A program made the position numbers and the translations under genes. Below, in pieces: positions 27,113 to 63,230 of a DNA stretch of 64,000 nucleotides (positions are counted from its first letter, which is position 1; each line of letters starts with the position of its first letter). The notes beneath the pieces are model-generated. The model did no database searches, was not told the DNA's origin, and was given only the letters and a program-made list of their open reading frames with translations. Origin of the DNA: Chloroflexota bacterium (GTDB lineage: Bacteria > Chloroflexota > Dehalococcoidia > E44-bin15); contig JAXHUE010000005.1 in assembly GCA_034189655.1 (NCBI GenBank), positions 4,408-68,407 of the forward strand, given 5' to 3'.

Positions 27113-29326
27113 TTGTATACGCTACTGCTGTTCTTCATATTCCTGTTCCTGTTCCTCTTCCTTATGTTCCTGTGCCTGTACTTGGGGGACATCGGCAACA
27201 AGAGGAGGGCACGGGAGAAGGTGCTGGGCCACGCCAGGCGGCTCGAGGCGCTCAACGCCGTGGCGCAGACAGTGAGCAAGACGCTGGAGCTCGACGAGCT
27301 GCTCCACAGCGCCCTGGCCACGGCGATAGAGGTGATGGGGGCCGATACCGGCTCTGTCTTCGAGATCGACCTGTCGGCGAGCGAGCTTCGGCTCAGGTCA
27401 TACGTGAACGTTTCCGACGGCCTGGTCGACAGGGTGCTGCGGCTACCGCTGGACGACGAGGAGCTGGAGCGGGCGCTCCAGTGGACGGACCCCAGTGTGT
27501 CGGTGTGGGAGGTCTTCAGTGAACATAACCTCTTACTCATGGCAGAGGCGATGCAGCAAGAGCAGGTGCGCTCCTTCGCCGTGGTCCCCTTCTCGGCCCG
27601 GGACCAGCTCCACGGCTTCATCAGCGTGGGGGCCTGCCTGGAGCGCCAGTTCGGGCCCGATGAGATCGAGCTGCTCCAGGCCATAGGCAACCAGATAAGC
27701 GTGGGGCTGGAGAACGCACTGCTCTACCAGGACGCCAGGGACAAGGCGGTGCGCCTGGAGACACTCCACGCCATCGCCGCCACCTGCAGCCAGAGCCTCG
27801 ACCTCGACCGCCTGTTCGCTACCGTCCTGGACAAGATACTGGAGCTCACCGATGTGGACGCCGTCCTCATCTTCTCCGCCGATATCGCCATAAAGCGCGC
27901 CTGCCTCAGGGCGCACCGGGGGATAGGCGACGAGACCGCCGAGCTGGTGCGGGAGCTGGAGCTGAGCGTGGAGAGAGATACGGCCGAGGGCTTCATCGCA
28001 CGGGGCCAGCCCATACTCGGGCTGCGGCAGATGCTCAGCGAGTCTGCCCTCTCGTCGACCATGGGGGCAGTGCGGCGCGAGGGGCTCAAGTCCTTCCTCA
28101 CGCTTCCCTTCAGGTCGCGGGAGAGGTTCCGCGGCGCCGTCATCCTGGCCTCACGCGCCGAGCGCCACTTCAGCCCCGACGAGATCGGCCTCCTGGAGTC
28201 CATCAGCAACGAGCTCGCGGTGGGCATAGAGAACGCCAACCTCTACCAGCAGGTATCGGAGAAGGCGGAGCGCCTGGCCCTCATCGCCGAGGTGACCAAG
28301 GTCATCGGCTCCAGCCTCTACATCGAGGACGTGTTCGAGGGCTTCGTCGCCGGCATCAAGCGGCTGGTGGACGCCGACCGCGTGGCCATCAATGTCATCG
28401 AGGGTGAGACCAAGCGCGTCTTCGCCGTATCGTCAAAGGTGTCCACTGAGCTGGGGTGGGGGGTGTCCTCTCCCCTCGCTGGCTCGGCCACTGAGTGGCT
28501 CATGAACCACCGCAGGCCCATCGTCGAGGACGACCTGGCAGCGGACACGATGTTTGAGAGCAGCCGCATCCTCCATGAAGAGGGCTTCAAGTCGGCCATC
28601 AGGCTGCCCCTCATCGCGCGCGGCGGCGTCATCGGCTCCTTCAGCGTGAGCAGCCGCCGTCCCCATGCCTACTGCGGTCGGGAGCGTGAGCTACTGGAGC
28701 AGGTCACCGGACAGCTTGCCATGGCCGTTGAGAACATGAGGCTCTACCAGCACACGGAGTACCTGGCCTGGACCGACGGCCTCACCGGCCTCTACAACCG
28801 GCGCTACCTCGCAGAGCAGATGGGGCGGGAGCTGGCCCGCGCCCAGCGGCTGGACGTCCCGCTCTCGCTCATCCTCATCGACCTGAACGAGTTGAAGCGG
28901 GTCAACGACCACTTCGGGCACGAGGCAGGGGACATGCTGCTGTGGGAGCTCAGCCGCATCATCCACGAGAGCATGCGCCGCTCCGACATCGCGGCGAGGT
29001 GGGGCGGCGATGAGTTCCTCATCATGGCAGCGGAGGCCGACATCGACGGCGCCGATGCCCTGGCGCGGCGCATCGTCTCTAAGGTGGTGCGCTTCCGCAA
29101 GAAGGTGAACGACGAGTGGGTGTCCCTGGGGGTGAGCATAGGCATCGCCTCCTATCCCGCCCACGCCGAAAGCCTCCTCGACCTGATCAGGAAGGCGGAC
29201 GAGGCCATGTACTGGGCCAAGAGGAGGGGGAGGGGCTCTTCCATCGCCAGGGCACTGCCCGACGGCGAGCAGCCCAGCCCCGGCAAGGACGGGGCCAGCA
29301 TAGGCACGTCCACCAAGATGAAATGA
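27113..29326 (+). CDS. Membrane-anchored diguanylate cyclase (TM-GAF-GAF-GAF-GGDEF)
   Basis: TDGLTGLYNRR, VNDHFGHEAGD, RRSD I-site, RWGGDEF, three GAF domains ending ENA.LY/ENMRLY. TTG start. Confidence 0.93.
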   Translation: MYTLLLFFIFLFLFLFLMFLCLYLGDIGNKRRAREKVLGHARRLEALNAVAQTVSKTLELDELLHSALATAIEVMGADTGSVFEIDLSASELRLRSYVNVSDGLVDRVLRLPLDDEELERALQWTDPSVSVWEVFSEHNLLLMAEAMQQEQVRSFAVVPFSARDQLHGFISVGACLERQFGPDEIELLQAIGNQISVGLENALLYQDARDKAVRLETLHAIAATCSQSLDLDRLFATVLDKILELTDVDAVLIFSADIAIKRACLRAHRGIGDETAELVRELELSVERDTAEGFIARGQPILGLRQMLSESALSSTMGAVRREGLKSFLTLPFRSRERFRGAVILASRAERHFSPDEIGLLESISNELAVGIENANLYQQVSEKAERLALIAEVTKVIGSSLYIEDVFEGFVAGIKRLVDADRVAINVIEGETKRVFAVSSKVSTELGWGVSSPLAGSATEWLMNHRRPIVEDDLAADTMFESSRILHEEGFKSAIRLPLIARGGVIGSFSVSSRRPHAYCGRERELLEQVTGQLAMAVENMRLYQHTEYLAWTDGLTGLYNRRYLAEQMGRELARAQRLDVPLSLILIDLNELKRVNDHFGHEAGDMLLWELSRIIHESMRRSDIAARWGGDEFLIMAAEADIDGADALARRIVSKVVRFRKKVNDEWVSLGVSIGIASYPAHAESLLDLIRKADEAMYWAKRRGRGSSIARALPDGEQPSPGKDGASIGTSTKMK

Positions 29327-32090: not shown

Positions 32091-32104
32091 CCGGTGCTAT
32101 ATAC

Positions 32105-32410
32105 ATGGCGCACGCGCTTTTGGACTCTGCCGCCACCTTCAGGAGGGGTGCGGCCGAGAAGGTATCGTTTGTGCTCTTGAACCAGCTGGACCTGGTACTG
32201 ACCGTTGTTGCCCTGTCCATAGGTCTCCAGGAGCTGAACCCCATCATGCGCAGCGCGGCGACATCACCCCTTCATCTGGTGCTGCTCAAGCTCGCCCTGC
32301 CGCTGCTCATCGCCTGGCTCGTCCCGGGCAAGCTTCTCCTGCCTGCCATCGCCCTCCTCGCATTCGTGGTGGGCTGGGACGTGAAGGAGCTGCTCCTGGG
32401 TATTCCCTAG
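32105..32410 (+). CDS. Small membrane protein, DUF5658-like
   Basis: LNQLDLVLT...G..ELNPIM...LLKL pattern, hydrophobic. Confidence 0.7.
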   Translation: MAHALLDSAATFRRGAAEKVSFVLLNQLDLVLTVVALSIGLQELNPIMRSAATSPLHLVLLKLALPLLIAWLVPGKLLLPAIALLAFVVGWDVKELLLGIP

Positions 32411-32434
32411 GCCCCCCATATCCGTGCACTGTCA

Positions 32435-33178
32435 CTAAGAGTACGAGGGGACCATCACCTTCCTTTTTCTGCGCAGGTTTGGCGAGAGCAGCTCACCGGT
32501 TGCCTCCAGGTAGAGCCTCGCGGCGCTCACCCTGGCGTGCTTATCTCCGAAGTTGGTCTCTGCCTTAAGCTTGCCGTACATGCTGTTGATGTGGTTCTCA
32601 ACCGTTCTCACATCTATGTACAGGGTCTCAGCTATCGCTGAGTTGGTGTACCCCTTGGAGAGCAAGCTCAAGATCTCCAACTCCCTGGCAGTAAGCTGTT
32701 TCAAGAAGGGATACTCAGGGTTCTCGGTGAACAGGAAACCGGCCAGGGCCGGGTCGAGAATGACCTGTCCCCGGCTGGCGGCAATGACGATACCCGTCAA
32801 CTGCTCGATGTGGTCCAAAGACTGCTTCAAGAATAGTGCCACTCCCCCCTCGCCCTTCAAGGCAAGGTCCCGCAGCAGCTCTATATGCTCACTATCATAG
32901 GATACCAGGAAAAGGACTATCCCGATGCCGGGGTTGTCGGCACGTATCTGCTCCAGCTCCTCGATGATGGCCTCATCGAGCTGCTTCGTTCCTACCATCA
33001 GTACATCGGGACCCTGGGTCAACACCTCACGACGCGCGGCACTTATATCGCCGTTCCTGAACACACTCACCAGATCAACGCGGTCGGTCTGGGAAAAGAC
33101 AAACCGGCATGCCTCCCGATGGAGCTCCTGCTCCTCCACTACAAAGAGCCGCACCGCCTTTGCTTTTGTCTGTGCCAT
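32435..33178 (-). CDS. Atypical NarL/LuxR-family regulator (pseudo-receiver plus LuxR HTH)
   Basis: LTARELEILSLLSKGYTNSAIAETLYIDVRTVENHINSMYGKL. The receiver has VVEE and LMVG in place of the phosphoacceptor Asp. Confidence 0.9.
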   Translation of the reverse strand: MAQTKAKAVRLFVVEEQELHREACRFVFSQTDRVDLVSVFRNGDISAARREVLTQGPDVLMVGTKQLDEAIIEELEQIRADNPGIGIVLFLVSYDSEHIELLRDLALKGEGGVALFLKQSLDHIEQLTGIVIAASRGQVILDPALAGFLFTENPEYPFLKQLTARELEILSLLSKGYTNSAIAETLYIDVRTVENHINSMYGKLKAETNFGDKHARVSAARLYLEATGELLSPNLRRKRKVMVPSYS

Positions 33179-33406
33179 CCTCTTGCCCTCTGGACCGTGT
33201 ATTTTCTCCCCTCACCACCTTCCCCTCCCAGCTCGTGCCCAGCCCTGTAGTGAAGACAGACGGCCCGTCGGGAAGCATAGGACTGTATTGGAACCGCTGA
33301 AGCGTTCATCTCTGTCTCACCTACCACCGATCTCGCAGCAACTGGCTACAGGGCCAGGGGCAACCAACACTCTCGATCCGACCTGAGATCTAGAACACGC
33401 GCTCCG

Positions 33407-33491
33407 TCTTCGGCAACCCGGCCATCCTGCTCCAGCTTCGGATCCGTGGCTTTGCGCCCCGCGATCTCTCGCGGTTTGCCTTTATCGGCAC
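33407..33491 (-). ncRNA. c-di-GMP-I (GEMM) riboswitch
   Basis: Minus strand reads GCCGAUAAAGGCAAACCGCGA-GAGA-UCGCGGGGCGCAAAGCCACGGAUCC...GGAUGGCCGGGUUGCCGAAG, with GGCAAAC, a GNRA-capped P2, GCAAAGC and a 3' GGGUUGCCGA. Confidence 0.88.
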
Positions 33492-33569
33492 TTCAGAGCG
33501 TTCCCATTTTACCAGGCATTGCCTGTCCAGCTCTTACGCACCATTGACACCCCTTGCCAGGCTCTGTAT

Positions 33570-33685
33570 GAGCGATATTATCTTTATTTTATGTATATTA
33601 CTGCTGAATGGTATATATAACACATTAGTAAAGATAATGCAACTATTTTAGATGTTCTTCAGCTATTATAAACAATTTCAGTCAA
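33570..33685. promoter_or_regulatory. AT-rich divergent promoter region between the riboswitch-luxR unit and the archaellin operon
   Basis: Sharp drop in GC (TTATTTTATGTATATTA, TATATATAAC, TATTATAAA) in a high-GC window. Confidence 0.6.
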
Positions 33686-33828
33686 CTGGGACTGGGGTGG
33701 TGCCCATTATGTCATACCACTCTCCCAATTGCAAGGGGTGCTAGCCCCTAATTCCAGTGATGGAACACTCTCAATCGCCTTCGGGGGACACCCCCAGCGG
33801 GGATAGGGGGTTTAGTGCCACGCAACAT

Positions 33829-38389: not shown

Positions 38390-38866
38390 GTGGACAAGGT
38401 AGTGACGACGGCTCTGCTGATCATAGCGGGGATCATATGTACCGTATTCATCTTTAACAGCGTCTACCCGATGGTGAACCGTTCCAGCGAGGCCATGGTG
38501 AGCATGGCTGAGAACATAGACGAGAGGATGAAGAGCAGCATAAACATAGTGCACGCGGCGAGCTCGTCCGACCGGCTCACGCACTATGTGTGGGTGAAGA
38601 ACGTGGGGGATGCCCGCATCACCACCATAGAGAGGAGCGACGTGTTTTTCGGCAAGGAGGGCAGCTTCTCTCGCGTTCCCCACACGTCGGAGGCCGGCGC
38701 CAGCTACCCCAGGTGGAGCTACACCATAGAGAACGATGCCGAGTGGAAGAAGGGTGCCACCGTGAAGATAACCATCACCTACGACGTTGACCCGGGGACC
38801 GGGACCTACTTCGTGAAGGTGATCATACCGAACGGGATAGCGGATGAGTACTACTTCAGCATTTAA
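38390..38866 (+). CDS. arlG: Archaellum stator protein ArlG/FlaG
   Basis: N-terminal TM, ERMKSSINIV, VWVKNVG, DVFFG, W..GATVKITI, GTYFVKVI.PNG. Confidence 0.85.
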   Translation: MDKVVTTALLIIAGIICTVFIFNSVYPMVNRSSEAMVSMAENIDERMKSSINIVHAASSSDRLTHYVWVKNVGDARITTIERSDVFFGKEGSFSRVPHTSEAGASYPRWSYTIENDAEWKKGATVKITITYDVDPGTGTYFVKVIIPNGIADEYYFSI

Positions 38867-38877
38867 CGGAGAGGAGA

Positions 38878-39411
38878 ATGGAGACTGCTATCGTCTCGTT
38901 GATATGCATCGCGCTCATCGTGCTCGGGGGGATGACCATCTCGCAGAGCTTCCTCGACTCGGTGGACAGCACCAGTAGCGGCCTCGAGGAGATGGGCGAT
39001 AGGGCCGGGGAGATCATGCGCACCGAGCTCTCTCCCCTCTCTGGGAGCCAGTCCCAGGCCGAGGTGCTGGACATATGGCTGGGGAACGATGGACAGACCA
39101 AGCTGGGCTCGTTCGATAAGTGGGATGTCATCGTTCAGTACTACGACGACGGCGGCTCGTATCACATAACGTGGCTTCCCTACACCGAGGAGGTGCCGGG
39201 AGACAATAAGTGGACGATAGCGGGGATATACCTCGACGTGGAGAGCTCGACGCCGGAGGTCTTTGAGCCAGATATCTTGAACCCAGGAGAGGACGTGGCG
39301 ATCGAGGCCAGGCTCGACCCGCCCGTGGGGGCCGGTACCACCAATATGGTGATAGTCGCCACCCCCAATGGCATCGCCACCGTCATCCCCTTCGCCGGAT
39401 ACCAGCCATAG
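38878..39411 (+). CDS. arlF: Archaellum stator protein ArlF/FlaF
   Basis: N-terminal TM, N.G.T.L...WDVIVQY, LNPGE, VIVATPNG, position after arlG. Confidence 0.8.
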   Translation: METAIVSLICIALIVLGGMTISQSFLDSVDSTSSGLEEMGDRAGEIMRTELSPLSGSQSQAEVLDIWLGNDGQTKLGSFDKWDVIVQYYDDGGSYHITWLPYTEEVPGDNKWTIAGIYLDVESSTPEVFEPDILNPGEDVAIEARLDPPVGAGTTNMVIVATPNGIATVIPFAGYQP

Positions 39412-39464
39412 CCGCTCCGGAGGTCGACCTCCGAGACAGCGGAGGTCGCAGAGGAAAAGGCAGC

Positions 39465-40970
39465 ATGAAGTTTGGAAGGCTTGGCAAGAGGCCAGAGGCG
39501 GGGGAGGGCGCACCGACCAAGGCGGCAGGTAACAGCAAGTATATCGACTTCGACCTGCTCTACCAGCTCTCCTACATGTCCGTCATCGCTGCGGCGGGCG
39601 TTCCCCGCAGCCAGATATTCGAGCGCTCTTCGCAGCTCTCGAACGCCTCTTCCAAGTATTTCAGGAAGATACAGCTCACCTGCCAGAGGCTGGGCTACGA
39701 CTACGCACGGGCGTGCCGGGTGGTGGGAGAGCAGGCGAAGGAGGAGGACATCAAGGGGCTCCTGCTCCGCTTCTCGAGCTCCCTGGTCTCCGGCGAGCCC
39801 GAGGCCGAGTTCCTGACCAGGGAGGCAGAGGCCCTGGCCAAGACCTACGACAACGAGTACGAGGGCAAGCTGGAGTCACTGCGGCAGTGGACCGATGCCT
39901 ATGTGTCCCTCACACTCTCGGCGGTGCTCGTGGTCATCATCGGCCTGGTATCTACCATGATATGGAAGATGGATACCATATTCATCATGGGGCTCATGGC
40001 GGTGTGCATCGGTTGCACTGCCGTGGGGGTATGGCTGCTCTATCTCATGTCGCCGCGAGAGGTCATGGTCCTGGGCTGGGACGCGCAGGGAAGGGGCGTC
40101 GTGAGGAAGGCGCTCAAGTTCTTCCTCCCCGCTGCCGTGGTGGTGTGCATCGTGCTCCTGGTACGGGGGGCAAACATCGGATGGATACTGCTCATCGGGG
40201 CTGCCCTGGTCTTGCCCATAGGGTTCGTGGCCTCGCGCGACGATAAGAAGGTGTCGGCGCGGGACGCCGAGGTGGGGCCCTTCTTGAGGTCACTGGGCGG
40301 TGTCTGTGCTGCCATAGGGACAACGGTGCGGGACGCCCTGGGGCGGCTGGACCTGGATTCGATAAACACGCTCAGGCCCCAGGTGAAGAACCTGCACACC
40401 AGGCTCGTCTCCGGCATCAGGGCCAGGCTGTGCTGGCAGCGGTTCATCGAGGAGACGGGGAGCGAGCTCGCCAGCAGGAGCGTGACCATGTTCTACGACG
40501 CCATCGATATGGGGGGAGAGCCGGAGCGGGCGGGGTACCACGCCTCGATCTTCGCCAACAAGATCGCGATGCTGCGCGCCCGGCGGAGGGTGGTGTCGTC
40601 ACCGTTCCACTGGCTGTGCATCGCCATGCATGGTGCGGTCATCATGCTGTTGGTCTTCGTCACCGAGGTGATCACCATCTTCGGGGGGATGGTGGCCGAG
40701 GCCGAGGAGGCCATGCCCCAGAGCCCGGGCGCCGCCTCGATGACTAGCTTTGCCAGCTTCAACTACTCAGGGATCGAGCTGATGGGCCGCATCGTGCTGC
40801 CCCTGGTCTTGATATTCACCGTGGCCAATGCGCTGGCCCCCAGCATAGTCGACGGCGGAAGCAAGTGGAAGTTCCTCTACCCGCTGGGGATAACGGCGGC
40901 CATATCGGGATTGAGCCTGATTGCGCTGCCCGGCGTGGCCACCTGGCTATTCAGCTCGATACAGATGTGA
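39465..40970 (+). CDS. arlJ: Archaellum platform protein ArlJ/FlaJ
   Basis: DLLYQLSYM, LGYDYARAC, SGEPEAEFL, YEGKLESLRQWTDAY, FLRSLG, two-repeat GspF-like fold with TM helices. Confidence 0.92.
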   Translation: MKFGRLGKRPEAGEGAPTKAAGNSKYIDFDLLYQLSYMSVIAAAGVPRSQIFERSSQLSNASSKYFRKIQLTCQRLGYDYARACRVVGEQAKEEDIKGLLLRFSSSLVSGEPEAEFLTREAEALAKTYDNEYEGKLESLRQWTDAYVSLTLSAVLVVIIGLVSTMIWKMDTIFIMGLMAVCIGCTAVGVWLLYLMSPREVMVLGWDAQGRGVVRKALKFFLPAAVVVCIVLLVRGANIGWILLIGAALVLPIGFVASRDDKKVSARDAEVGPFLRSLGGVCAAIGTTVRDALGRLDLDSINTLRPQVKNLHTRLVSGIRARLCWQRFIEETGSELASRSVTMFYDAIDMGGEPERAGYHASIFANKIAMLRARRRVVSSPFHWLCIAMHGAVIMLLVFVTEVITIFGGMVAEAEEAMPQSPGAASMTSFASFNYSGIELMGRIVLPLVLIFTVANALAPSIVDGGSKWKFLYPLGITAAISGLSLIALPGVATWLFSSIQM

Positions 40971-40980
40971 GGGCGGGACA

Positions 40981-41166
40981 ATGGACCCACAGCAGAGGCT
41001 TCAGGCGCTGGAAGACGAGTTCCAGGAGCTGAAGGAGGAGTGGCGGCGCATCCTCCTGGACATTCGCGCCTTCCTCATGGAGCTCCACACCCCCCTGCCC
41101 GGAGAGTGGAGCGCGGGAAAGGGCCCCTCCCAGGGCGGTTCAGGAAGGAGGGATGAGCACCCATGA
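40981..41166 (+). CDS. 61-aa coiled-coil protein resembling the N-terminus of the next gene
   Basis: RLQALEDEFQELKEEWRRILLDIRAFLME versus KIDALEGEFKLMKGELKHTLISIRDFLLN. Its stop overlaps the next ATG. Confidence 0.7.
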   Translation: MDPQQRLQALEDEFQELKEEWRRILLDIRAFLMELHTPLPGEWSAGKGPSQGGSGRRDEHP

Positions 41167-42263
41167 CCATGGAGAAGAAGATCGACGCGTTGGAGGGGGA
41201 GTTCAAGCTGATGAAGGGGGAGCTCAAGCATACCCTCATCAGTATCCGCGACTTCCTGTTGAACGCCAGGCCGGCGCCCCTCGATATAGAGGAGGTCCCC
41301 GAGACCGACTCGGAGACCCTGATACCTGCGGAGGCCTACGTCCCGCCGCCCCCGCCTCAGGAGACCGATGACGACGACTCCCCGCTGTCACCGGGGCCGG
41401 CCGAGGATACAGTGCAGCCGCCGTCTGCGGAGATGGCGGTGGACGAGCCGGAGCCGCCTGAAGAGAGGTCGGAGGCAGTGCTGCCGCCCCTCGTGGAGGA
41501 CGAGGACAACACTGTCCCGCCGCTGCCAGAGGCCGAGGCGGTGGAGGGGCAGGTGCCGGGTACAGGGGAGGAGGCGCTCGACGATATGGGGACACCGCCG
41601 CCGATAGAGGAGGTCGAGGACACAGCGCCGCCATCGGCGGAGATGGCCGAGGGGCCGGCCCCGCAGCCGCCGCTCCGGGAGTCCGCGCACCACGTCCCGC
41701 AGCCGCAGGGCCCTTCCGATTTCATGGTGGAAGAGACCGTGGTGGAGGAGGACATACTCGATGAGCCCCCCGCGGCCGCCGGTTACGGCGCAATACCGTG
41801 TGAGGAGGACATCCACTCACCGCTGCCCTTCGACGAGGGACCGCTCGACGTGCTGTCCGCACTCGATGACATAGACGAAGTGCCCTCCCTGCCCCCAGAT
41901 GACGCGCCGGCCGAGGCCAGGCCGCCGACGGAGAGACCCCAGGGGGCGAGGCGGGAAGCGCCACCACAGGCACTCAAGGAGGAGAGGATGAAAGAGACAA
42001 ACGGGTCACTTTCCCAGATGAATTCGCTGGCCAATCTCATACGCTGGGTCTCGTCCGCCAAGAAAGAGATAGGGACCCAGCAACTGCCCACCTTCCTGGA
42101 GGCGTTCCGGGCCCACGGGCCGCTCCCGGCGGAGATGAAGGAGCTCATCCTGCACCTCGCAGTGGTGGTGGAGGAGCCGCCTGAGCGCCTGAGCCCGGCG
42201 GAGATATGGAGCAGGCTCGCCCTGGAGCTGCACGCCATCCTCCAGGACGGCGCACACCAGTGA
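41163..42263 (+). CDS. ArlD/E (FlaD/E)-like accessory protein
   Basis: N-terminal coiled coil, long acidic Pro-rich linker, C-terminal LANLIRWV...IG...LPTFLE.F...G resembling the FlaD/E domain. Confidence 0.6.
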   Translation: MTMEKKIDALEGEFKLMKGELKHTLISIRDFLLNARPAPLDIEEVPETDSETLIPAEAYVPPPPPQETDDDDSPLSPGPAEDTVQPPSAEMAVDEPEPPEERSEAVLPPLVEDEDNTVPPLPEAEAVEGQVPGTGEEALDDMGTPPPIEEVEDTAPPSAEMAEGPAPQPPLRESAHHVPQPQGPSDFMVEETVVEEDILDEPPAAAGYGAIPCEEDIHSPLPFDEGPLDVLSALDDIDEVPSLPPDDAPAEARPPTERPQGARREAPPQALKEERMKETNGSLSQMNSLANLIRWVSSAKKEIGTQQLPTFLEAFRAHGPLPAEMKELILHLAVVVEEPPERLSPAEIWSRLALELHAILQDGAHQ

Positions 42264-42362
42264 GCGTGAGAGGACGGGGGCCGATGCACACTCCCAGGGG
42301 CCATCACCCCCGGGACGACGACTATTGAAGCGGCTGTAGCCGCGGCTTGGAGGTAGGATACC

Positions 42363-43082
42363 ATGATGGAGGATACCGCCTTTGCGTCTGATGTCATACT
42401 TACCGGCATCCGCGAGATGGACGAGAAGCTGGGCGGGGGCATTCCCATCGGCTCCCTGTGCATAATAGAAGGCCACTCCGATGCCGGGAAGAGCGTGCTG
42501 AGCCAGCACTTCACCCACGGCGCCCTGAGCTGCTCCCAGAGCTCCGTGGTGTACTACACCACGGAGAACACGGTGAGGAGCTTGATCGCCCAGATGGACT
42601 CGCTCTCACTGTTCACGCTGGACCACTTCCTCACCGATCGCCTGCGCATCTATCCGCTCACACTGCGCAGCGACCAGCAGGACACCAGCAGGCCCTTCCG
42701 CCTGCTGGTGGAGCACTTCGCCTACCTGCCGCGCGATTTCACGGTGCTGGTGGTGGACTCCATCACCCTCCTCGTCGCGCACAGCAGCGCGGTATCCATA
42801 ATCGATTTCTTCTCGGCGTGCAAGGACCTGTGCGACGAGGGTCGCTCCATCCTCCTGGTGGCGCACTCGTATGCCTTCGACGACGAGGTGCTGTCCCGCA
42901 CCCGTTCTCTGTGCGATGCCCACCTGAGGCTGAAGCTGCAGCAGGTGGGGGACCGCCTGGTGAAGATGCTGGAGGTGCTCAAGGTGCGCGGTGCCGACCG
43001 CCCTACAGGGGACATCGTGAGCTTCGAGATAGAGCCCAAGCTGGGCATGCGCATCATACCGCTGGCCAAGGCGAGGGTCTAG
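42363..43082 (+). CDS. arlH: Archaellum RecA/KaiC-like protein ArlH/FlaH
   Basis: EMDEKLGGGIPIGSL, GHSDAGKS, YYTTENT, VVDS, FEIEPKLGMRIIP. Confidence 0.93.
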   Translation: MMEDTAFASDVILTGIREMDEKLGGGIPIGSLCIIEGHSDAGKSVLSQHFTHGALSCSQSSVVYYTTENTVRSLIAQMDSLSLFTLDHFLTDRLRIYPLTLRSDQQDTSRPFRLLVEHFAYLPRDFTVLVVDSITLLVAHSSAVSIIDFFSACKDLCDEGRSILLVAHSYAFDDEVLSRTRSLCDAHLRLKLQQVGDRLVKMLEVLKVRGADRPTGDIVSFEIEPKLGMRIIPLAKARV

Positions 43083-43091
43083 GGGGACGGC

Positions 43092-44870
43092 ATGTACCGC
43101 CTGCCCTTCGTAGCCAAGCCCTGCCACGTCGATTGCGAGAAGAGGTGCGGCGTCACCTTCGACAAATGCCCCACTTTCCATAACCTACCCGCCGACCTGA
43201 AAGGGGCATGCCGGGAGAACCTCCACCTCTTGCAGTACCTGCATATGCTCCCGCTGGACGAGATGGGCCTGCCCGAGTACCACGTGAAGCTCAGTCGGGG
43301 CATGAGGGGGGCCCAGAACCGCAACCTGCTCTACCCGGTGGAGGGCAGGATATTCATCCACATACTGGCCAACCCGGACGATATCAGGGACCACTATATC
43401 CCCGTAGAGCCGAGCCTGCTCCGCGACATGGACCACGTCCTGGAGGAGGTGGAGCAGCGGCTCGCCGACCACGTCGAGGAGCTGGAGGGCGTGTCCAGCG
43501 ACGAGAAGAGGCTGGAGGTCATACTCAAGATAATGGACCGGATGGTCAGCACCAAGGGGGGCAATGGGGGCAAGGCACATCGCGGTGGCGGCAGAAACGG
43601 CAGTCGCACCCAGCAGGCGGGTGCCAGGGGAAAGGGGGGCAAGAACGGGAAAAACGCCCTCGCCGTGACCACCACCCAGTACCAGGGCCTGCGCTACCTG
43701 CTCAAGCGGAAGCTGGAGGGGCTGGGGGTGCTTGAGCCACTGATACAAGACCCCTACATCGAGGACATCTCCTGCTCCGGCGTGGGGCACATATTCGTGG
43801 AGCACAAGATATTCGGCGGGCTGAAGACCATCATAGGCTTCGAGGACCACGAGGAGCTGGACAAGTTCGTCATCGGGCTCGCCGAGCGTATCAAGCACCC
43901 GGTGACCTTCCGCGACCCCTGTGTCGATGCCACGCTGCCTGATGGCTCCCGTATCAACATCGTCTATGGCACCGATGTATCCAAGCGGGGCAGCAACTTC
44001 ACCATCAGGAAGTTCAGCCCGGTGCCGATAAGCGTGATAGAGCTCATCCAGTACGGCACCATCAGCTACGAGATGGCGGCCTACATGTCCATCATCATCC
44101 AGGACCAGATGAACGTGTTCGTGTCAGGGGAGACGGCCTCGGGCAAGACCACGCTGTTAAACGCGCTGGCTACCTTCCTGCCGCCGGAGTCTAAGGTGGT
44201 GAGCATCGAGGACACACCCGAGATCCAGGTGCCCCACCCCAACTGGATACGCGGCGTCACACGCGGCTCCACCAAGAGCTCGGACGCATCCGAGGTGTCG
44301 ATGTTCGACCTGCTCAAGGCCTCGCTGCGACAGCGGCCCAACATAATCATCGTCGGCGAGATCCGCGGCGAGGAGGGGAACATCGCCTTCCAGGCGATGC
44401 AGACCGGCCACGCCTGCATGAGCACATTCCACGCGGCCTCGGTGACCAAGCTGGTGCAGCGCATCACCGGCAGCCCCATAAGCGTGCCCAAGTCCTACGT
44501 GGACAACCTGAACGTGGTGGTGATCTGCCAGATGGTGCACCTGCCCAACGGGCAATCGGCCCGTCGCGTCACCAGCATCAGCGAGATAGTGAGCTACGAC
44601 TCAGTGACCGATACCTTCTCCTTCATCGAGGTGTTCACCTGGGACCCTATCGAGGACACCTTCAGGTTCCCGGGATACCGTAACTCCTACCTGCTTGAGG
44701 AGAAGATCGCGGCCAAGCGCGGCATCCCCCACGATAAGAGACACCAGATATACTCCCAGATCAAGCAGCGGGCCGAGGTCTTGAAGCGCATCCAGGAGCG
44801 GGACATCACCAACTTCTACGAGGTATACGGTGTCCTATCGAAGGCATACCGCGAGGGCTATTTCCGGTGA
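43092..44870 (+). CDS. arlI: Archaellum motor ATPase ArlI/FlaI
   Basis: DPYIEDISCSG, ATLPDGSRINIVYG, Walker A GETASGKTT, LRQRP, Walker B IIVGE, QTGH. Confidence 0.95.
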   Translation: MYRLPFVAKPCHVDCEKRCGVTFDKCPTFHNLPADLKGACRENLHLLQYLHMLPLDEMGLPEYHVKLSRGMRGAQNRNLLYPVEGRIFIHILANPDDIRDHYIPVEPSLLRDMDHVLEEVEQRLADHVEELEGVSSDEKRLEVILKIMDRMVSTKGGNGGKAHRGGGRNGSRTQQAGARGKGGKNGKNALAVTTTQYQGLRYLLKRKLEGLGVLEPLIQDPYIEDISCSGVGHIFVEHKIFGGLKTIIGFEDHEELDKFVIGLAERIKHPVTFRDPCVDATLPDGSRINIVYGTDVSKRGSNFTIRKFSPVPISVIELIQYGTISYEMAAYMSIIIQDQMNVFVSGETASGKTTLLNALATFLPPESKVVSIEDTPEIQVPHPNWIRGVTRGSTKSSDASEVSMFDLLKASLRQRPNIIIVGEIRGEEGNIAFQAMQTGHACMSTFHAASVTKLVQRITGSPISVPKSYVDNLNVVVICQMVHLPNGQSARRVTSISEIVSYDSVTDTFSFIEVFTWDPIEDTFRFPGYRNSYLLEEKIAAKRGIPHDKRHQIYSQIKQRAEVLKRIQERDITNFYEVYGVLSKAYREGYFR

Positions 44871-56229: not shown

Positions 56230-57312
56230 GTGCGCCGAATTACCGTAGCCCACGCTGAACTGGGGATGGTACTGGCCAGGGCAGTATACGATGGCACCGG
56301 CACACAGCTGCTCAATGCCGGCATGGCCCTCGATGCGCGCCACCTGCCCGTCCTCGGCCGGCTGGAGGTGCGGGAGATCCTGGTCCAGGACCCCCGTGTC
56401 GACGATGTCATCATCGAGCCCCTCATCTCGGAGGGGATAGAGGCGCGGGCGACGCGGCTGCTGCACAGGCTGCTGGATGGTAACCGGGGGCGGAGCTTAA
56501 AGTACATTCAGCTGGACGTGGTATCCCTCGACCGCGTGGTGAAGGCCATGCTCCAGGAGCTGTACTCCGCATTCATGGGCGAGATCGACGTAGCGGGGTG
56601 CCACTCCCTGGGAAACTACGAGTACGTCCACCCGGTGAAGACGGCGAGCCTGTGCCTCATGCTGGGCAAGGAGGCGGGCATCCCCCGCTCTGAGCTGGCC
56701 CACCTGGGCATAGCCGCCCTGCTGCAGAATATCAGCTATATACTGCTGCCCAGGAACATGGTGACAAACCTGGACCCGACGAAGGGTGACCCCCCGGAGG
56801 ACTACAAGAAACACCCGGAGTGGGGATACTACATCCTGAGGCGGTACCCCGATATAGACGCCAAGGCGCAGCTCGCAGTACTACAGCACCACGAGAGGTG
56901 GAATGGGGAGGGGTTCCCCAAGGGGCTGAAAGGGGACCAGATATCCCTCTTTGCCCGCATCATCGCCATAGCCAGCACCTACCACGCCCTGGTCTCGAAG
57001 AGGCCCAACCAGCAGCCCTACCCCCCTCCCGAGGCGGCGGAGTACATCTCTGCCTACAGCGGGGAGCTCTTCGATCCCCAGCTCGCCCAGCTCTTCATAA
57101 GGAGCGTCCCCTTCTATCCCAAGGGGATATCGGTGAAGCTCAATACAGGGGAGGGCGGCATCGTCACCAACGCCAACGTGGGCTACATAGGCAGGCCGGT
57201 GGTGCGCATATGCAGCGACCGCTACGGCGATGAGGTGAGCAGGCCCTATGACATAGACTTGACCGACACGGAGTACCAGAGCAAGCTCATCACCGAGATA
57301 CTGGAGTATTGA
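56230..57312 (+). CDS. Degenerate HD-GYP protein
   Basis: HHERWNGEGFP and FARIIAIA are present, but the HD dyad reads QN (ALLQNIS). Confidence 0.85.
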   Translation: MRRITVAHAELGMVLARAVYDGTGTQLLNAGMALDARHLPVLGRLEVREILVQDPRVDDVIIEPLISEGIEARATRLLHRLLDGNRGRSLKYIQLDVVSLDRVVKAMLQELYSAFMGEIDVAGCHSLGNYEYVHPVKTASLCLMLGKEAGIPRSELAHLGIAALLQNISYILLPRNMVTNLDPTKGDPPEDYKKHPEWGYYILRRYPDIDAKAQLAVLQHHERWNGEGFPKGLKGDQISLFARIIAIASTYHALVSKRPNQQPYPPPEAAEYISAYSGELFDPQLAQLFIRSVPFYPKGISVKLNTGEGGIVTNANVGYIGRPVVRICSDRYGDEVSRPYDIDLTDTEYQSKLITEILEY

Positions 57313-57352
57313 CCGGAAGGGACAGCGTACACCCAATGGGGGGACCCGAGCA

Positions 57353-57892
57353 GTGAGCGATAAGCCGCTCTCACAGTCAGACATCGACAACCTGGTGTCG
57401 CGGCTCTCCGCGAGCGAGCCGGCAGCGCCGAAGGCGACGGCCACCGCCGCGGCAGACACTGCACCCCCACGCGGTGCCACTGCCCCGCCGACCGCCGCCT
57501 CGCCTTCCAAGGGGGCGCCGCCGCCACCGGGCCCGCCTCCCCAGGCCGCGGCCGTCGACGAGAGGACCGAGGAGAGGCTGGCAGAGCTCGCCCAGCGGCT
57601 GGTCAAGGTGGAGACATCGCTGGCCAGGCTCGACCGCCTGGAGAAGCTCATCGCCGAGGCGGGGAACACCTCCCAGCTCTCTCATCGCCAGATACAGGTG
57701 GTGGTCAATCGAGTACAGGAGCTGAACGAGGAGCTGAAGGCGATGTCGACAAAGCTACAGGGCACACTGGGCTACGACGTCTACCACACCTTCACCTGTG
57801 ACAAGTGCGGGAGCCAGGGCCTGGTCGCCGTCCTGTTCAAGTGTACCAAGTGCACCCGCCAGAGCTGGCGCGGCTGGTGGCCGCGCAAGTAG
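57353..57892 (+). CDS. Hypothetical protein: FliM-N-like CheY-binding peptide, Pro/Ala linker, coiled coil, Zn ribbon
   Basis: MSDKPLSQSDIDNLV, heptad region, CDKC...CTKC, WRGWWPRK end. Confidence 0.75.
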   Translation: MSDKPLSQSDIDNLVSRLSASEPAAPKATATAAADTAPPRGATAPPTAASPSKGAPPPPGPPPQAAAVDERTEERLAELAQRLVKVETSLARLDRLEKLIAEAGNTSQLSHRQIQVVVNRVQELNEELKAMSTKLQGTLGYDVYHTFTCDKCGSQGLVAVLFKCTKCTRQSWRGWWPRK

Positions 57893-57923
57893 GGCACACT
57901 CTATACCTTCAAGGGAGCGGACT

Positions 57924-60638
57924 ATGACAGTGAGAGAAAGAGCACAGGGGCTGTGGCACAATCGTCACCTGCGGCTTATCGGCCTGGTCACGGTGGTATG
58001 TACCGTGTTCTACTACCTGCCGCCCATAGCTGGCCTCGCCGGGGGGACATCCATGGAAGGGGCGCTGGGCGTGCTGCACGACTTCTACGGGCTGGTCTTC
58101 TTCGTCCCGGTGGTCTACGCAGCGTACGTATTCGGCATCAGGGGGGTCTTCATAACCGCCATACTGTCCATGCTGATCATCCTCCCCTATGCCGCGTTCA
58201 TCTCGCCCTACTCGGACGGCCTGTTAAGGGCCACGGCGCTGGCCATCATCTTGAGCGCCGTGGGCGCCGCCATAGCCATGCTACAGAAGGGAGACGACGA
58301 GCGCCGCAAGAGCGAGCGGGAGCTCAAGTACCTCTGCGACGTGGGAAAGGCAGCGGAGAAGAGCGAGTCCCTGGAGGTGTTCCTGTCCTCGATGATAGAG
58401 CTCGTGTCCAAGGCCGTCGAGCACCCCGGTGATACCAGGGTCAGGATCGAGGTCGATGACAGGGTCGTCGAGAGCACGGGCTTCGAGCGCGAGGCGCTCG
58501 AGTCCGTCGTCACCATACCGCTGCGCTCCAAGGGGACCCTCCACGGCACGCTCACCCTGGGGTGCACCTCCGGGCACAGGCTGAGCCCCCAGGAGATAGA
58601 GCTGCTGAACTCAATCGCCGACCAGATAGCGGTGGGCATCGCCAACTCCGAGCTGTACGAGGAGACGAGGCAGAACGTGGAGTGGCTGGCCGTGGTGGGG
58701 GAGATAGCCAAGGCCATCGCCTCCAGCACAGACATCGACGAGGTCTTCCGCACCGTCACCGACGGGATAGGGAGGCTCGTGGAGTTCGACCAGGCCAGCA
58801 TCCACCTCGTCGATAGGGAGGCCGGCACCATGAGGGTATTGGCCCTCTCCCGTGACATGGAGTCGGGCCTGGGGGAAGGGGTCGTGATGCCTCTGGAGGG
58901 CAGCGGCACGGAGTGGGTCGTCGAGCACATGAGGCCCCGCATCGAAGATGACCTCGCCAGCAAGGAGTGCCCCTTCTCGTCGGACAACCTGCTGCTGGCG
59001 TACGGGTTTGTGTCCCTGGTACAGCTCCCCCTCGTCGCCAAGGGGAGGGCATTCGGCACCTTCAACGTGAGGAGCCGGCGGCCCCATGCCTTTGGCGGGA
59101 AGGAGGCGGAGTTCCTGGAGCGCATCTCAAACCAGCTGGCCATCGCACTGGAGAATGCCGCCCTCATATCGCAGGTCAGGTTGAGCGGGAGACAGATGGC
59201 GGGGGCGGGCGATGGGGCCAGGGTGGCCCAGGACACCGCCGCACAGTCGGAGCAGCTCATGCACTTGAGCGAGGTGGCCGAGGAGGCGGTGCGCGACCTG
59301 AACGATGCCCTCTCCTCCATCGTGAGCAGGGCGAGACAGGCCCTCGAGGATGCCAGGGGCCGCCAGGTCCGGGCGAACCTGGAGGTCATAGAGAAGCGGG
59401 CCTTGAATGGGGCCAACACGGTACGCCGCCTCCAGGACATCGCCGCCGTGGGCCCCGACGTCGCACCCGTGCCGCTCGACGTGGCGCCGGGGGGAAACGG
59501 TGAGCGGGAGAGAGGGGCCGGGACGGGGCACGACGTCGACCCGCTGGTGGGCGCCGGCCTCTTTGCCGAACTGGACCAGGTGTCCCCCTTCTGCGGCGAG
59601 GCCGAGATCAGGGAGGCAGTGATGAACATCCTCCTAAACGCCATGCGTGAGGGCGGGGAGGCGGGCCACGGCAAGGGAGAGAAGCGGGTCAACGATAACG
59701 GGCTTTCGCTGACGGTAAACGCCGTTGCCGTCATCGACCTTGAGGGCGACATGATCTACGTCAACCGCTCGTTCCTCCAGATGTGGGGGTACTACAGCGA
59801 CAAGGATGTGCTGGAGAGGCCGGCGCGTGAGTTCTGGCAGGTCGAGGCGGGGGCAGCGGACATACTGGGGCCCCTCCTGCGGTACGGGAACTGGCAGGGT
59901 GAGCTCAAGGCCCGGAAGAAGGACGGCACCCTGTTCGATGTCCAGATGTGGGCGAGCACCGTGGGCGAGGGCGATAAGCCCATCTGCATCATGGCCTCCT
60001 TCATCGACATCACCGAGCGCATGCGCACAGAGCGCGAGCTCAAAGAGAGCTTCACCAAGCTGCGCCAGACCCTCCAGGAGACGGTGGACACACTCACCCG
60101 GACCATAGAGAAGAGAGACCCCTACACCGCTCGCCACCAGCAGCGGGTGACCCGACTCGCCTGCGCCATCGCGCAGGAGATGGGGCTCTCCCAGCAGCAG
60201 GTCGATACCATCCGCATAGCCGGCATCCTCCACGATATCGGCAAGGTCCACATCCCCACCGAGGTACTGGCCAAGCCTATCTGGCTGAGCGATATCGAGA
60301 AGGCCCTGGTAAAGACCCACCCCCAGATAGGGTACGACATCGTGAGCATGCTGCCCTTCGAGGGGCCCGTGGCCCAGATCATCCTCCAGCACCACGAGAT
60401 GCTCGACGGCAGCGGGTACCCCTCCGGCCTGCACGGGGAGGAGATACTGCTGGAGGCGAGGGTCTTGGCCGTCGCCGACGTCGTCGAGGCCATGTCCTCC
60501 AGCCGCCCCTACCGCTCCGTCATCGGCACCGAGCGGGCCGTGGAGGAGATATCGCAGAAGAGGGGGACGCTCTACGACCCCAGGGCGGTGGACGCCTGCA
60601 TAAAGCTCATACAGGAGCGGGGTTTCAAATTCGACTAA
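57924..60638 (+). CDS. Membrane sensor HD-GYP phosphodiesterase (TM-GAF-GAF-kinase remnant-PAS-HD-GYP)
   Basis: RDPYTARHQQRV, ILHDIGK, HHEMLDGSGYP, RPYR, PAS (YVNRSF...RKKDG...DITER). Confidence 0.9.
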   Translation: MTVRERAQGLWHNRHLRLIGLVTVVCTVFYYLPPIAGLAGGTSMEGALGVLHDFYGLVFFVPVVYAAYVFGIRGVFITAILSMLIILPYAAFISPYSDGLLRATALAIILSAVGAAIAMLQKGDDERRKSERELKYLCDVGKAAEKSESLEVFLSSMIELVSKAVEHPGDTRVRIEVDDRVVESTGFEREALESVVTIPLRSKGTLHGTLTLGCTSGHRLSPQEIELLNSIADQIAVGIANSELYEETRQNVEWLAVVGEIAKAIASSTDIDEVFRTVTDGIGRLVEFDQASIHLVDREAGTMRVLALSRDMESGLGEGVVMPLEGSGTEWVVEHMRPRIEDDLASKECPFSSDNLLLAYGFVSLVQLPLVAKGRAFGTFNVRSRRPHAFGGKEAEFLERISNQLAIALENAALISQVRLSGRQMAGAGDGARVAQDTAAQSEQLMHLSEVAEEAVRDLNDALSSIVSRARQALEDARGRQVRANLEVIEKRALNGANTVRRLQDIAAVGPDVAPVPLDVAPGGNGERERGAGTGHDVDPLVGAGLFAELDQVSPFCGEAEIREAVMNILLNAMREGGEAGHGKGEKRVNDNGLSLTVNAVAVIDLEGDMIYVNRSFLQMWGYYSDKDVLERPAREFWQVEAGAADILGPLLRYGNWQGELKARKKDGTLFDVQMWASTVGEGDKPICIMASFIDITERMRTERELKESFTKLRQTLQETVDTLTRTIEKRDPYTARHQQRVTRLACAIAQEMGLSQQQVDTIRIAGILHDIGKVHIPTEVLAKPIWLSDIEKALVKTHPQIGYDIVSMLPFEGPVAQIILQHHEMLDGSGYPSGLHGEEILLEARVLAVADVVEAMSSSRPYRSVIGTERAVEEISQKRGTLYDPRAVDACIKLIQERGFKFD

Positions 60639-60655
60639 CCGGGAGGGCGGTACAG

Positions 60656-61870
60656 ATGGACGAAAGGGAATGCCTGACAGGCCAGGAGTGGGAGTCACCC
60701 AGTGCCGACCAGGTGATGCAGATCGATGTCCGTCACCTCCTGCACCTGATGGCAGGAAGGGAGGCATCAGACCTCCACATCAGGGCGGGCAGCTCGCCCA
60801 TACTCAGGGTGGACGGGACACTGGTCCCCGCCGCAGACGTGCCGCCGCTCTCCCCGGAGGCGATACACAACGCCTTCGAGCAGATAACGACGGAGGAGCA
60901 GCGCCGGGCGTTCTACGCCAACAGGGAGCTCGACTTCAGCTACAGCGTTCACCGCCTGGCCCGGTTCCGGGTGAACGCCTTCTTCCAGAGGGGCACCGTC
61001 GGCCTCGCCGTCCGCCGCGTGCCCATCCACATCCCCAGCATCGAGGAGCTCGGCCTGCCCCAGGTGTGCAAGACGCTGGCCTTAAACGCAAAGGGGCTGG
61101 TGCTGGTGACCGGACCCGGCGGCTGCGGCAAGTCCACCACGCTTGCCGCCATGATCGACTATATCAACTGCCACCAGACGCGGAACATCATCACCATCGA
61201 GAACCCCATCGAGTTCCTCCACCGCAACCGGTGCTCCGTCATCGCACAGCGTGAGCTGGGAGACGATACCCTCTCTGCGGCGGCGGCCCTGCGTCAGGCC
61301 TTGAGACAGGACCCCGACGTGATAGTGGTGAGCGAGATGTCTGACCTCGATACCGTGGCCACGCTCATCACCGCCGCTGAAAATGGCCACCTGGTGCTGG
61401 GCACGCTCCGCGCCAACGATGTCATCCAGGCCGTGGAGCGCATCGTGGACGCCTTCCCCCCGAGCCAGCAGGGCCGGATAAGGCTGCAGCTCTCTACGGC
61501 GCTGCAGGGCATCGTCGCCCAGATGCTGCTGCCCAGGGCCGAGGGGCAGGGCAGGGTCGTGGCGTGCGAGGTCATGACGGCCAGCGACGAGGTCCGCGCC
61601 CTCATCAGGGAGGGCCGGATATACCACCTGCACAGCTTTATGCAGACGTGCGGTGAGCGCGGGATACAGACCTTCGAGAGCTCGCTGTGGGAGCTCGTGG
61701 TCTCGGGCCAGATAAGCGGTGAGGAGGCGCTGATACGGAGCTCCAGGCCGGATGAGTTCAGGCCGCCCCCCGCGTCGTATCTGGGGACGGCAGCCTCTGG
61801 CCCGCAGTGGCGCCGGGAAGACTGTATGATGCGGTATCCCTCTACCAGAGAGGAGGAAGTGACGATATGA
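60656..61870 (+). CDS. pilT: PilT/PilU-family ATPase with divergent motifs
   Basis: ASDLHI, RFRVNAF, GPGGCGKSTT, ALRQDPDV, VRALIREG. Confidence 0.88.
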   Translation: MDERECLTGQEWESPSADQVMQIDVRHLLHLMAGREASDLHIRAGSSPILRVDGTLVPAADVPPLSPEAIHNAFEQITTEEQRRAFYANRELDFSYSVHRLARFRVNAFFQRGTVGLAVRRVPIHIPSIEELGLPQVCKTLALNAKGLVLVTGPGGCGKSTTLAAMIDYINCHQTRNIITIENPIEFLHRNRCSVIAQRELGDDTLSAAAALRQALRQDPDVIVVSEMSDLDTVATLITAAENGHLVLGTLRANDVIQAVERIVDAFPPSQQGRIRLQLSTALQGIVAQMLLPRAEGQGRVVACEVMTASDEVRALIREGRIYHLHSFMQTCGERGIQTFESSLWELVVSGQISGEEALIRSSRPDEFRPPPASYLGTAASGPQWRREDCMMRYPSTREEEVTI

Positions 61871-63135: not shown

Positions 63136-63175
63136 CCCAGTATACCCCTTTACGCTGCCCGAACCGGGGCACGAA

Positions 63176-63209: not shown

Positions 63210-63230
63210 CTGAATCTCCCTTGCCAGGCC

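Follow-up and report, generated by a model that had tools for sequence, protein, structure and literature searches.

How might a bacterium that carries an archaeal-type swimming motor bring that motor under its own signalling? The question is raised by a 64,000-nt stretch of DNA from a Dehalococcoidia genome (Chloroflexota; contig JAXHUE010000005.1, positions 4,408 to 68,407), hereafter the window, in which a riboswitch aptamer for cyclic di-GMP (c-di-GMP) lies on the minus strand in the 5' leader of a LuxR-type regulator gene (luxR), next to a cluster of archaellum genes. A riboswitch is here wired to a conserved regulatory module that heads a bacterial archaellum cluster, which is new, as is the finding that sister genera have another class of riboswitch on that module's partner gene.

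The explanation that we favour, with a probability of about one in two for the whole, is a circuit running from riboswitch to luxR to archaellins. The Dehalococcoidia archaellum cluster would be headed by a module in which a DUF5658 membrane protein gene stands tail-to-tail with a kinase-less LuxR gene whose product lacks the phospho-acceptor Asp, with the archaellins divergent from it; into the luxR 5' leader a canonical class-I riboswitch would have been inserted in this lineage. Three GGDEF cyclases would make the messenger, and HD-GYP-type enzymes, the majority of them encoded in the same 64 kb, would probably remove it. Binding of c-di-GMP to the aptamer would alter the amount of full-length luxR mRNA or of LuxR protein, and the LuxR level would then set transcription from the intergenic region between luxR and the archaellin gene arlB.

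A class-I aptamer ahead of luxR

A cmscan search of the whole window gave one match above gathering score, a complete c-di-GMP-I aptamer at 33408-33489 (-). The original prediction, made from the sequence letters by eye, had placed a GEMM-type aptamer on this strand at 33407-33491, within 2 nt of the match, and the significant Rfam covariance hit by which it was to be checked was obtained: searched alone, RF01051 scores 68.5 bits at this site against a cut-off of 35 and aligns over the full model (1-87). A lineage-specific class-I model gives 78.3 bits. Because of clan competition, cmscan labels the match RF03167 (c-di-GMP-I-GGC; 67.0 bits, cut-off 59, E 1.2e-13, model 1-80 of 80). We take the suffix GGC to mean that one column with A in the parent class holds G instead. 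At the position of this G in the RF03167 consensus (ACGCGAAgC), the window has A (GCGCAAAGC), as does the RF01051 consensus, and the column is A in all 30 class-I aptamers of the lineage (GCAAAG in 29, GCAAAA in one); despite a score above the RF03167 cut-off, the aptamer therefore lacks the mark of the GGC variant.

The remaining family features are in place. The equivalents of A47, presumably a ligand contact in this aptamer, and of C92 are canonical, GCGCAAAGCC and UUGCCGAAG agreeing with the RF01051 consensus columns, and all lineage-invariant columns are retained. A GAGA tetraloop is combined with a CCGA variant of the receptor, that is, a GNRA loop with its matching receptor, and the two covary among the 30 lineage aptamers: GAGA occurs with CCGA in 3/3 (window included) and GAAA with CU.. 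in 27/27. Over the helices of the same set, again including the window, 95.9% of cells are paired and 17 of 23 pairs carry compensatory changes, a level reached by 0/500 shuffles, while slid controls pair at most 44.5% of cells. The column equivalent to G20 is G (AAAGGCAAACC, against AAaGGCAAAcc in the RF01051 consensus). Contact of G20 and C92 with the ligand, and the replacement of G20 by A in relatives that bind 3'3'-cyclic GMP-AMP (3'3'-cGAMP), are described in PMC6140456, and the earlier assignment of the ligand as c-di-GMP rather than cGAMP, based on this base, agrees with the RF01051 column alignment. By its columns and helices the element is a typical c-di-GMP-I riboswitch, a class already known, and it is almost certainly a functional c-di-GMP sensor.

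Between the 3' end of the aptamer (33408) and the luxR ATG (33178) lie 229 nt on the same strand, close to the roughly 230 nt first estimated, and luxR is the next open reading frame (ORF). In a consensus scan, both minus-strand promoter-like sites fall upstream of the aptamer and none falls between the aptamer and the ATG. One of them, TTGCAA-17-CATAAT with a TG (33706..33734, -), is conserved in two relatives, G021 and G004, and has its -35 within a conserved AATTnGGGG..TTGC element; a transcript begun there would have a luxR leader of ~520 nt. A site facing the archaellins, TTGCCA-16-TATTAT (33554..33581, +), is a consensus match alone and lies inside this predicted leader. Together with the aptamer, the rest of the leader (33179..33407, -) makes up ~330 nt that are extra relative to G021 and G004 in a three-sequence alignment, which at its low identity is indicative. 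From this layout we infer co-transcription with luxR, and the aptamer probably acts on that gene in cis.

The locus also recurs outside this genome, the stretch being present in DNA runs of several studies, which come from marine-sediment communities. Over 32000-33690 (DUF5658, luxR, leader and aptamer), a 1,894-nt contig from another study differs at 7 places, all of them outside 33178-33690. In a different sample, an 810-nt contig covering 33285-34100 has 11 differences and a 6-nt deletion; 8 differences lie in 33490-33640 and 3 in 33877-33975, with none in the 82-nt aptamer or in 33285-33407. Depths of these independent assemblies are ~5-10, at which single differences may be errors.

The regulator and its conserved module

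The gene downstream of the aptamer (32435..33178, -) encodes a NarL/LuxR-family pseudo-receiver regulator of 247 amino acids with an EEQE pocket, G63 in place of the Asp, K118 and a GerE helix-turn-helix (HTH), an assignment that draws on Pfam, phmmer, AlphaFold2 and Foldseek. Pfam recognizes GerE alone (E 2.4e-13). In phmmer searches against PDB chains, residues 9-207 align to VraR, NarL and DevR (best E 8.5e-13), with the acidic DD pair replaced by EE (15, 16), the phospho-acceptor Asp by G63 (PDVLMVG) and the conserved Lys kept as K118. An AlphaFold2 model from a 46-row family alignment has a (beta-alpha)5 receiver followed by the HTH, at a mean confidence (pLDDT, predicted local distance difference test) of 86.8, and Foldseek ranks LiaR, VraR, ChrA, RcsB, NarL and DesR first (LiaR/VraR E 1e-11) and VpsT 24th. 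The protein thus has the receiver fold and GerE/LuxR HTH of the NarL/FixJ type; it has neither the phospho-acceptor Asp nor the usual acidic pocket. Of 49 family members, 27 have G at the phospho-site, 20 have S, one has V and one D, the lone D belonging to an outgroup of 35% identity, and E15 is invariant among the 49.

Among the neighbours of luxR in the window there is no histidine kinase within ~17 kb, the nearest being CheA at 50500, and hence no cognate kinase in the neighbourhood. On three points the original prediction thus stands: the missing Asp (its LMVG), the absence of an adjacent kinase, and the divergence of the regulator from the archaellins, of which there are four (PF01917) at 33907-34560, 34667-36253, 36284-36988 and 37112-38233, all on the plus strand. 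At the other end of luxR, the gene for the small DUF5658 membrane protein (32105..32410, +) meets it tail-to-tail across a 24-nt gap. A predicted complex of LuxR with DUF5658 (score 0.00, mark 0.32) counts neither way.

Conservation of this arrangement was assessed in a class sample of 401 genomes, with LuxR homologues called at E <= 1e-35. A LuxR homologue was found in 21/401 genomes and ArlJ in 78/401; ArlJ is present in 16 of the 21 genomes with a LuxR homologue, against 78/401 overall, a comparison in which related genomes are not independent. After de-duplication, and with the window's own gene excluded, 51 LuxR-family genes were pooled from the class-sample loci, 7 loci of named metagenome-assembled genomes (MAGs), 18 metagenome contigs and 77 ArlJ-centred loci. 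A divergent archaellin gene lies within 1.3 kb of 28/51, a convergent DUF5658 gene within 400 nt of the 3' end of 28/51, and both are present at 19/51; close to a contig end are four of the homologues that lack DUF5658 and five of those that lack an archaellin. Because of these neighbour counts, the arrangement DUF5658 -> <- LuxR <-> arlB is, on gene order, a conserved module. The divergent layout of LuxR and archaellin is retained in several families and at protein identities ranging from 36% to 65%, and its conservation makes a regulatory link plausible. That LuxR controls the archaellins is, judged by synteny, somewhat better than an even bet. At one pair of loci, L047/L064 (G249:C19), two LuxR homologues stand in tandem between the archaellin gene and DUF5658.

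A DNA element in the shared intergenic region points the same way. The element AATTnGGGGnTAnCAnnnnTTGC occurs on the luxR strand in 10/18 luxR-arlB spacers, in the window at 33741-33753 (-), and the loci listed for it are L039, L040, L043, L046, L050, L053 and L070-L072. In the window part of it coincides with the -35 of the promoter-like site 33734-33706; it aligns with G021 and G004 and is a candidate operator. A second AATTGGGGG lies at 38314 (+), ahead of the arlF-like gene. A shorter motif, A[AT]TT[ATG]GGG[GT], was dropped: it has 12 genome matches, two of them in the archaellum cluster, and its per-locus counts do not exceed the mononucleotide expectation.

Among 41 close relatives, ArlJ occurs in four and the LuxR module in three, and in each of the three the module has a c-di-GMP riboswitch, class I on luxR in this genome and class II ahead of DUF5658 in G021 (57.6 bits) and G004 (56.7 bits; cut-off 53.5). 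The class-II copies each have a sigma-70-like promoter (by eye) and an intrinsic terminator, CCGACC-loop-GGUCGG with a U run. Because the 5' arm of this terminator is the aptamer's own 3' strand, CCGACC, they are read as ON switches. The window itself holds no class-II aptamer at E <= 5; its DUF5658 gene has a promoter-like TTGCCA-17-TATAAT (by eye). A broader scenario can be built on these three genomes, in which bacteria that captured an archaellum place it under c-di-GMP through the module of DUF5658 and Asp-less LuxR, and have done so twice within one Dehalococcoidia family, by class I on luxR and by a class-II ON switch on DUF5658 in two sister genera; we put forward this convergent rewiring, with DUF5658-LuxR as master switch, as a tentative idea that may well prove wrong.

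Two further observations concern the DUF5658 side of the module. A GC-rich hairpin stands just upstream of the DUF5658 start (by eye) in the window (~32058-32092), in L039 (~10679-10712) and in L040 (~9277-9312), with stems identical in this genome and G021 (CCCAGCGGGG/CCCCGCUGGG) and a different sequence in G004. Further upstream, between DUF5658 and the preceding gene for a BACON-domain surface protein, a 125-nt tandem repeat (2.1 copies, 90% identity, 31591-31846) has no other copy in the genome.

Weighing the proposed circuit against its rivals

The circuit requires that the leader convert ligand binding into a change in luxR expression. When the aptamer is enforced, constrained folds form a predicted 7-bp extension of helix P1, with CGCUCUG (33494..33500, -) pairing with CGGAGCG (33400..33406, -), and a 26-nt hairpin (33395-33370, dG -6.5 kcal/mol) that is followed by UGUUGGUUG, the whole a weak candidate attenuator (33361..33395, -). 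In the unconstrained fold, GAUCCG of the aptamer pairs with the 3' arm of this hairpin, CGGAUC (-54.3 vs -40.9 kcal/mol at 142 nt). A strain variant at 33500 changes a C-G pair of the predicted P1 extension to U-G. These folds weakly fit an OFF attenuator, in which ligand would lock the aptamer and free the weak downstream hairpin with its U-rich tail, attenuating luxR; with LuxR as an activator, high c-di-GMP would then mean less swimming, the usual bacterial logic. On the modelled folds, OFF is modestly preferred to ON as the polarity of the luxR riboswitch. Control through Rho, which the genome encodes, or through an upstream ORF may also operate.

The other class-I riboswitches of the genome, four copies in all, offer a comparison. 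They precede a prepilin-type (N_methyl) gene and a CBM96/DUF7305 protein (G000:C26:17198-17286), a 1,980-amino-acid PAS-GAF hybrid kinase and single-domain receiver, divergent from a GGDEF gene (G000:C12:85545-85632), and a GAF-HisKA_3 kinase and NarL-type regulator (G000:C56:51871-51959). Since signalling or regulator genes follow 3/4 of the class-I copies, placing regulators under c-di-GMP riboswitches appears to be a habit of this genome. At C56 and C26, strong hairpins with U-rich tails follow 19-21 nt on (dG -21.5 to -26.2; -15.9 kcal/mol); their terminator arms are, in our reading, complementary to aptamer strands, and with terminator and antiterminator so related both are read as OFF switches. 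A class-II match below threshold (G000:C33:7958-8042, 46.6 bits) lies before two ORFs without a Pfam family.

Several results weigh against the circuit. The terminator scan lists no terminator after the aptamer on the minus strand, a stricter scan for hairpins with U tails finds terminators at the siblings C26 and C56 and none at C45 or C12, and the candidate hairpin, at -6.5 kcal/mol, does not reach the thresholds cleared by the sibling terminators. The minimum free energy of the whole leader is no better than that of shuffles (z -0.21), the Shine-Dalgarno (SD) region of luxR is not obviously sequestered in either fold state, and no convincing expression platform was found in the leader. No relative above 65% protein identity, close enough to reveal covariation in the platform, was found in 8 loci on genome contigs and 18 on metagenome contigs. 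The segment 32435-34560, present in DNA runs, is in no RNA run listed. At Rfam gathering scores, a class-I aptamer was found in the sense leader of a luxR homologue at 0/55 loci (4 + 20 + 13 + 18), so that of the synteny first proposed, riboswitch with luxR and arlB, the gene pair stands (28/51) and the riboswitch does not. For the lineage models, 30 class-I and 22 class-II aptamers were used; run over 1.41 Mb comprising 77 other archaellum loci and controls, they recovered the window aptamer and two class-II controls and matched 0/77 of the other loci. As far as these searches reach, the riboswitch in the luxR leader is a single case, found in this genome alone. The module, too, is incomplete in its coverage: 62/78 ArlJ-positive genomes are without this LuxR at E <= 1e-35, 14/51 homologues have neither neighbour, some of them at contig ends, and a paralogue in the same genome (L042, G000:C55:32136-32834; 55% identity, also without the Asp) has no riboswitch, archaellin or DUF5658 beside it. 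That paralogue follows a PAS-GAF histidine kinase and an OmpR-type regulator and precedes an ABC transporter.

The 55-locus scan gave two class-I matches in other positions, one at L041 before a histidine kinase adjoining regulators of 34% identity and one at L057 pointing away from a homologue of 37% identity. A match of 20.7 bits (E 0.002) in the lineage-model scan was not credited.

The alternative that survives best concerns the target. The riboswitch might control luxR while the output of the LuxR/DUF5658 module is not archaellin transcription but another process, such as an envelope or membrane function linked to DUF5658, or regulation of the module alone, the proximity of arlB reflecting inheritance in a shared island. 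The pairing of LuxR with DUF5658 is as frequent as that with arlB, 28/51 each, nine loci have DUF5658 without an archaellin, paralogues lie away from archaella, and most archaellum-bearing genomes of the class do without this LuxR. Against such an accident of inheritance stand the retention of a divergent, promoter-sharing layout over the whole range of identities and families given above, and the conserved element of the shared intergenic region (10/18 loci). We regard control of other functions as unlikely, while giving it serious weight.

Reversed polarity is likewise unlikely. Here the riboswitch would be an ON switch, and high c-di-GMP would raise LuxR, which would repress the archaellins or co-operate with DUF5658. 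The class-II copies on DUF5658 in G021 and G004, with terminators sharing CCGACC with the aptamer, are read as ON, and an equal sign would be expected in the window if DUF5658 and LuxR act together; in full-length folds, moreover, the aptamer 5' flank has a distal partner (~33289-33303) that overlaps a possible upstream ORF start at 33309 and rivals the P1 extension. The sibling class-I riboswitches, on the other hand, look OFF in silico, and the sole ligand-dependent hairpin that the folds place after the aptamer has terminator-like geometry.

Two features of the leader may be recorded alongside these folds. The possible upstream ORF, of 56 codons (33139-33309, -) and with an SD-like AGGUGAG, runs across the luxR start in another reading frame. 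In the full-length folds the aptamer 5' flank pairs with the region where this ORF begins, in competition with the P1 extension, and the ORF may be due to chance in G+C-rich DNA. Five GATC sites within 135 nt (33329-33463) of leader and aptamer form the densest such cluster of the window, and five per 200 nt are reached in just 5/35,610 windows of the genome. The sites are self-complementary and may simply supply alternative pairings; Dam methylation was rejected as an explanation, the genome having no PF02086 match.

It is improbable that the aptamer lies outside the functional luxR mRNA, whether through a luxR start downstream of it, because it was newly inserted and its function is absent or in decay, or because its action is on the divergent archaellin promoter, through transcriptional interference or a short terminated RNA. 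Its position is unique to one lineage, the leader is long at ~520 nt from the conserved promoter-like site, and the plus-strand site at 33554-33581 lies within that leader, all of which such readings would accommodate. Yet all lineage-invariant aptamer columns are kept, the strain variant is unchanged in the aptamer and the following 120 nt with 8 changes just upstream, and the promoter-like site that a downstream start would use was not found. A ligand other than c-di-GMP, 3'3'-cGAMP or that of the GGC class, is least credible of all: the label RF03167 given by clan competition speaks for it, and against it stand the A at the diagnostic column, shared with RF01051 and all 30 lineage aptamers, the higher RF01051 score, far over its cut-off, the G at the G20 position where cGAMP-binding relatives have A (PMC6140456), and the reported matching of related c-di-GMP-I models to the same sequences (PMC9943018).

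Host, surroundings and known systems

The favoured circuit of riboswitch, luxR and archaellins is set in a host with c-di-GMP enzymes of its own. The genome (1.79 Mb, 57 contigs, 65.5% G+C, 97% complete) contains four sigma-70 region-2 genes, a family that matches 10 bacterial and 0/4 archaeal control genomes, and, among named genomes, the luxR locus has its closest relatives in 'Chloroflexi bacterium RBG_16_60_22' and 'uncultured Dehalococcoidaceae' MAGs. By these genes the host is a bacterium (Chloroflexota, Dehalococcoidia), not an archaeon. It has 3 GGDEF genes and 8 HD_5 (HD-GYP-type) domains, with no EAL or PilZ match in the genome, and as a bacterium with genes of its own for both types of enzyme it has c-di-GMP as a native messenger. 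Riboswitches for c-di-GMP are common in the group, with class I in 29/41 and class II in 24/41 relatives. The original prediction had supposed that an archaeal motor was placed under a second messenger foreign to archaea. This inference does not apply, because the host is a bacterium with native c-di-GMP and sigma-70, and archaella of Chloroflexota have already been published; the accurate framing is an archaeal-type motor in a bacterium beside bacterial c-di-GMP sensors.

In gene content, the window is a motility and signalling supercluster. On its left, a diguanylate cyclase with three GAF domains and GGDEF (27113..29326, +; Pfam), one of the genome's three GGDEF genes, is separated from DUF5658 by the BACON-domain gene. 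To the right of the archaellins, the assembly and motor genes (38390..44870, +) comprise ArlF/G-like genes from 38390 and 38878, ArlJ (39465-40970; T2SSF and NF004703 at E 7e-120, below the latter's curated cut-off), an ArlH-like KaiC-type ATPase (42363-43082) and an ArlI-like T2SSE ATPase (43092-44870), so that archaellins, ArlJ, ArlI, ArlH and ArlF/G are all present. An ORF of 366 amino acids at 41163-42263 (+) and another of 236 at the end of the cluster (44946-45656) have no Pfam or NCBIfam match and, by position, may encode ArlCDE- or ArlX-like adaptors. Downstream follow a methyl-accepting chemotaxis protein with six PAS domains and then CheA (50500), CheC/X, CheD, CheB and CheR. After the che genes come four HD_5 (HD-GYP-type) proteins (56230..63983) with 5 of the genome's 8 HD_5 domains, and among their genes is one for a T2SSE ATPase (60656-61870). 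The archaellum and che clusters are thus flanked by 5/8 HD_5 domains and 1/3 GGDEF genes of the genome.

The locus offers a testable entry point, in that an RNA sensor, a regulator with a conserved partner gene and a conserved promoter-proximal DNA element all lie by the archaellins and are flanked by enzymes that make c-di-GMP and candidates for degrading it. If the circuit holds, it would reveal the way in which an archaeal machine, once acquired horizontally, is fitted into a bacterial motile-sessile decision circuit, and both the DUF5658 family and this pseudo-receiver clade would gain their first function; the circuit has no bearing on c-di-GMP signalling in archaea.

Four known systems invite comparison. 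Archaella were acquired by Dehalococcoidia and Anaerolineae from Methanotecta-like archaea, according to a recent study (PMC12488501, Nat Microbiol 2025), and the window, from a Dehalococcoidia genome, resembles the Chloroflexota archaella of that paper and of PMC13747009 (ISME Commun 2026), which has 226 archaellum-encoding Chloroflexota genomes, in its complete arlB-arlF/G-arlJ-arlH-arlI cluster with an adjacent che cluster. The regulatory module is, by contrast, unmentioned in their main texts, in which the terms 'riboswitch', 'c-di-GMP' and 'LuxR' do not occur. Literature on the archaellum with c-di-GMP, riboswitch or Chloroflexi, and on Dehalococcoidia with c-di-GMP, judged by titles and the starts of abstracts, likewise yielded no paper on this wiring or module, and supplements may hold gene lists.

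Class-II c-di-GMP riboswitches (RF01786) offer a parallel within the group: G021 and G004 carry them, with textbook terminators, at the corresponding module. They differ in aptamer class, in their place on the neighbouring DUF5658 gene and opposite strand, and in their absence from the window.

Atypical NarL/LuxR regulators, Asp-less or independent of phosphorylation, such as VpsT, which is among both the sequence and the fold matches of the regulator, share its receiver fold with GerE HTH, its degenerate phospho-site and its lack of a partner kinase. The c-di-GMP-binding motif of VpsT is inapplicable, because the regulator has no Trp; the messenger would here be sensed by the mRNA leader instead. 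In the literature found, no paper has the family signature VEEQEIYRE or its DUF5658 partner gene.

Among class-I (GEMM-I) riboswitches linked to motility, Cd1 precedes the flagellar operon of Clostridioides difficile and Vc2 precedes tfoY of Vibrio cholerae. The luxR-leader element belongs to the same aptamer family, has the same ligand-contact columns, lies in a leader ahead of motility-related genes and would be expected to follow the same logic of c-di-GMP against swimming. It departs from them in that a canonical terminator is not evident, the element is lineage-specific, its direct target is the gene of a pseudo-receiver regulator, and its output would be an archaellum rather than a flagellum or pilus. 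The arrangement suggests a borrowed archaeal motor wired into ordinary bacterial second-messenger control.

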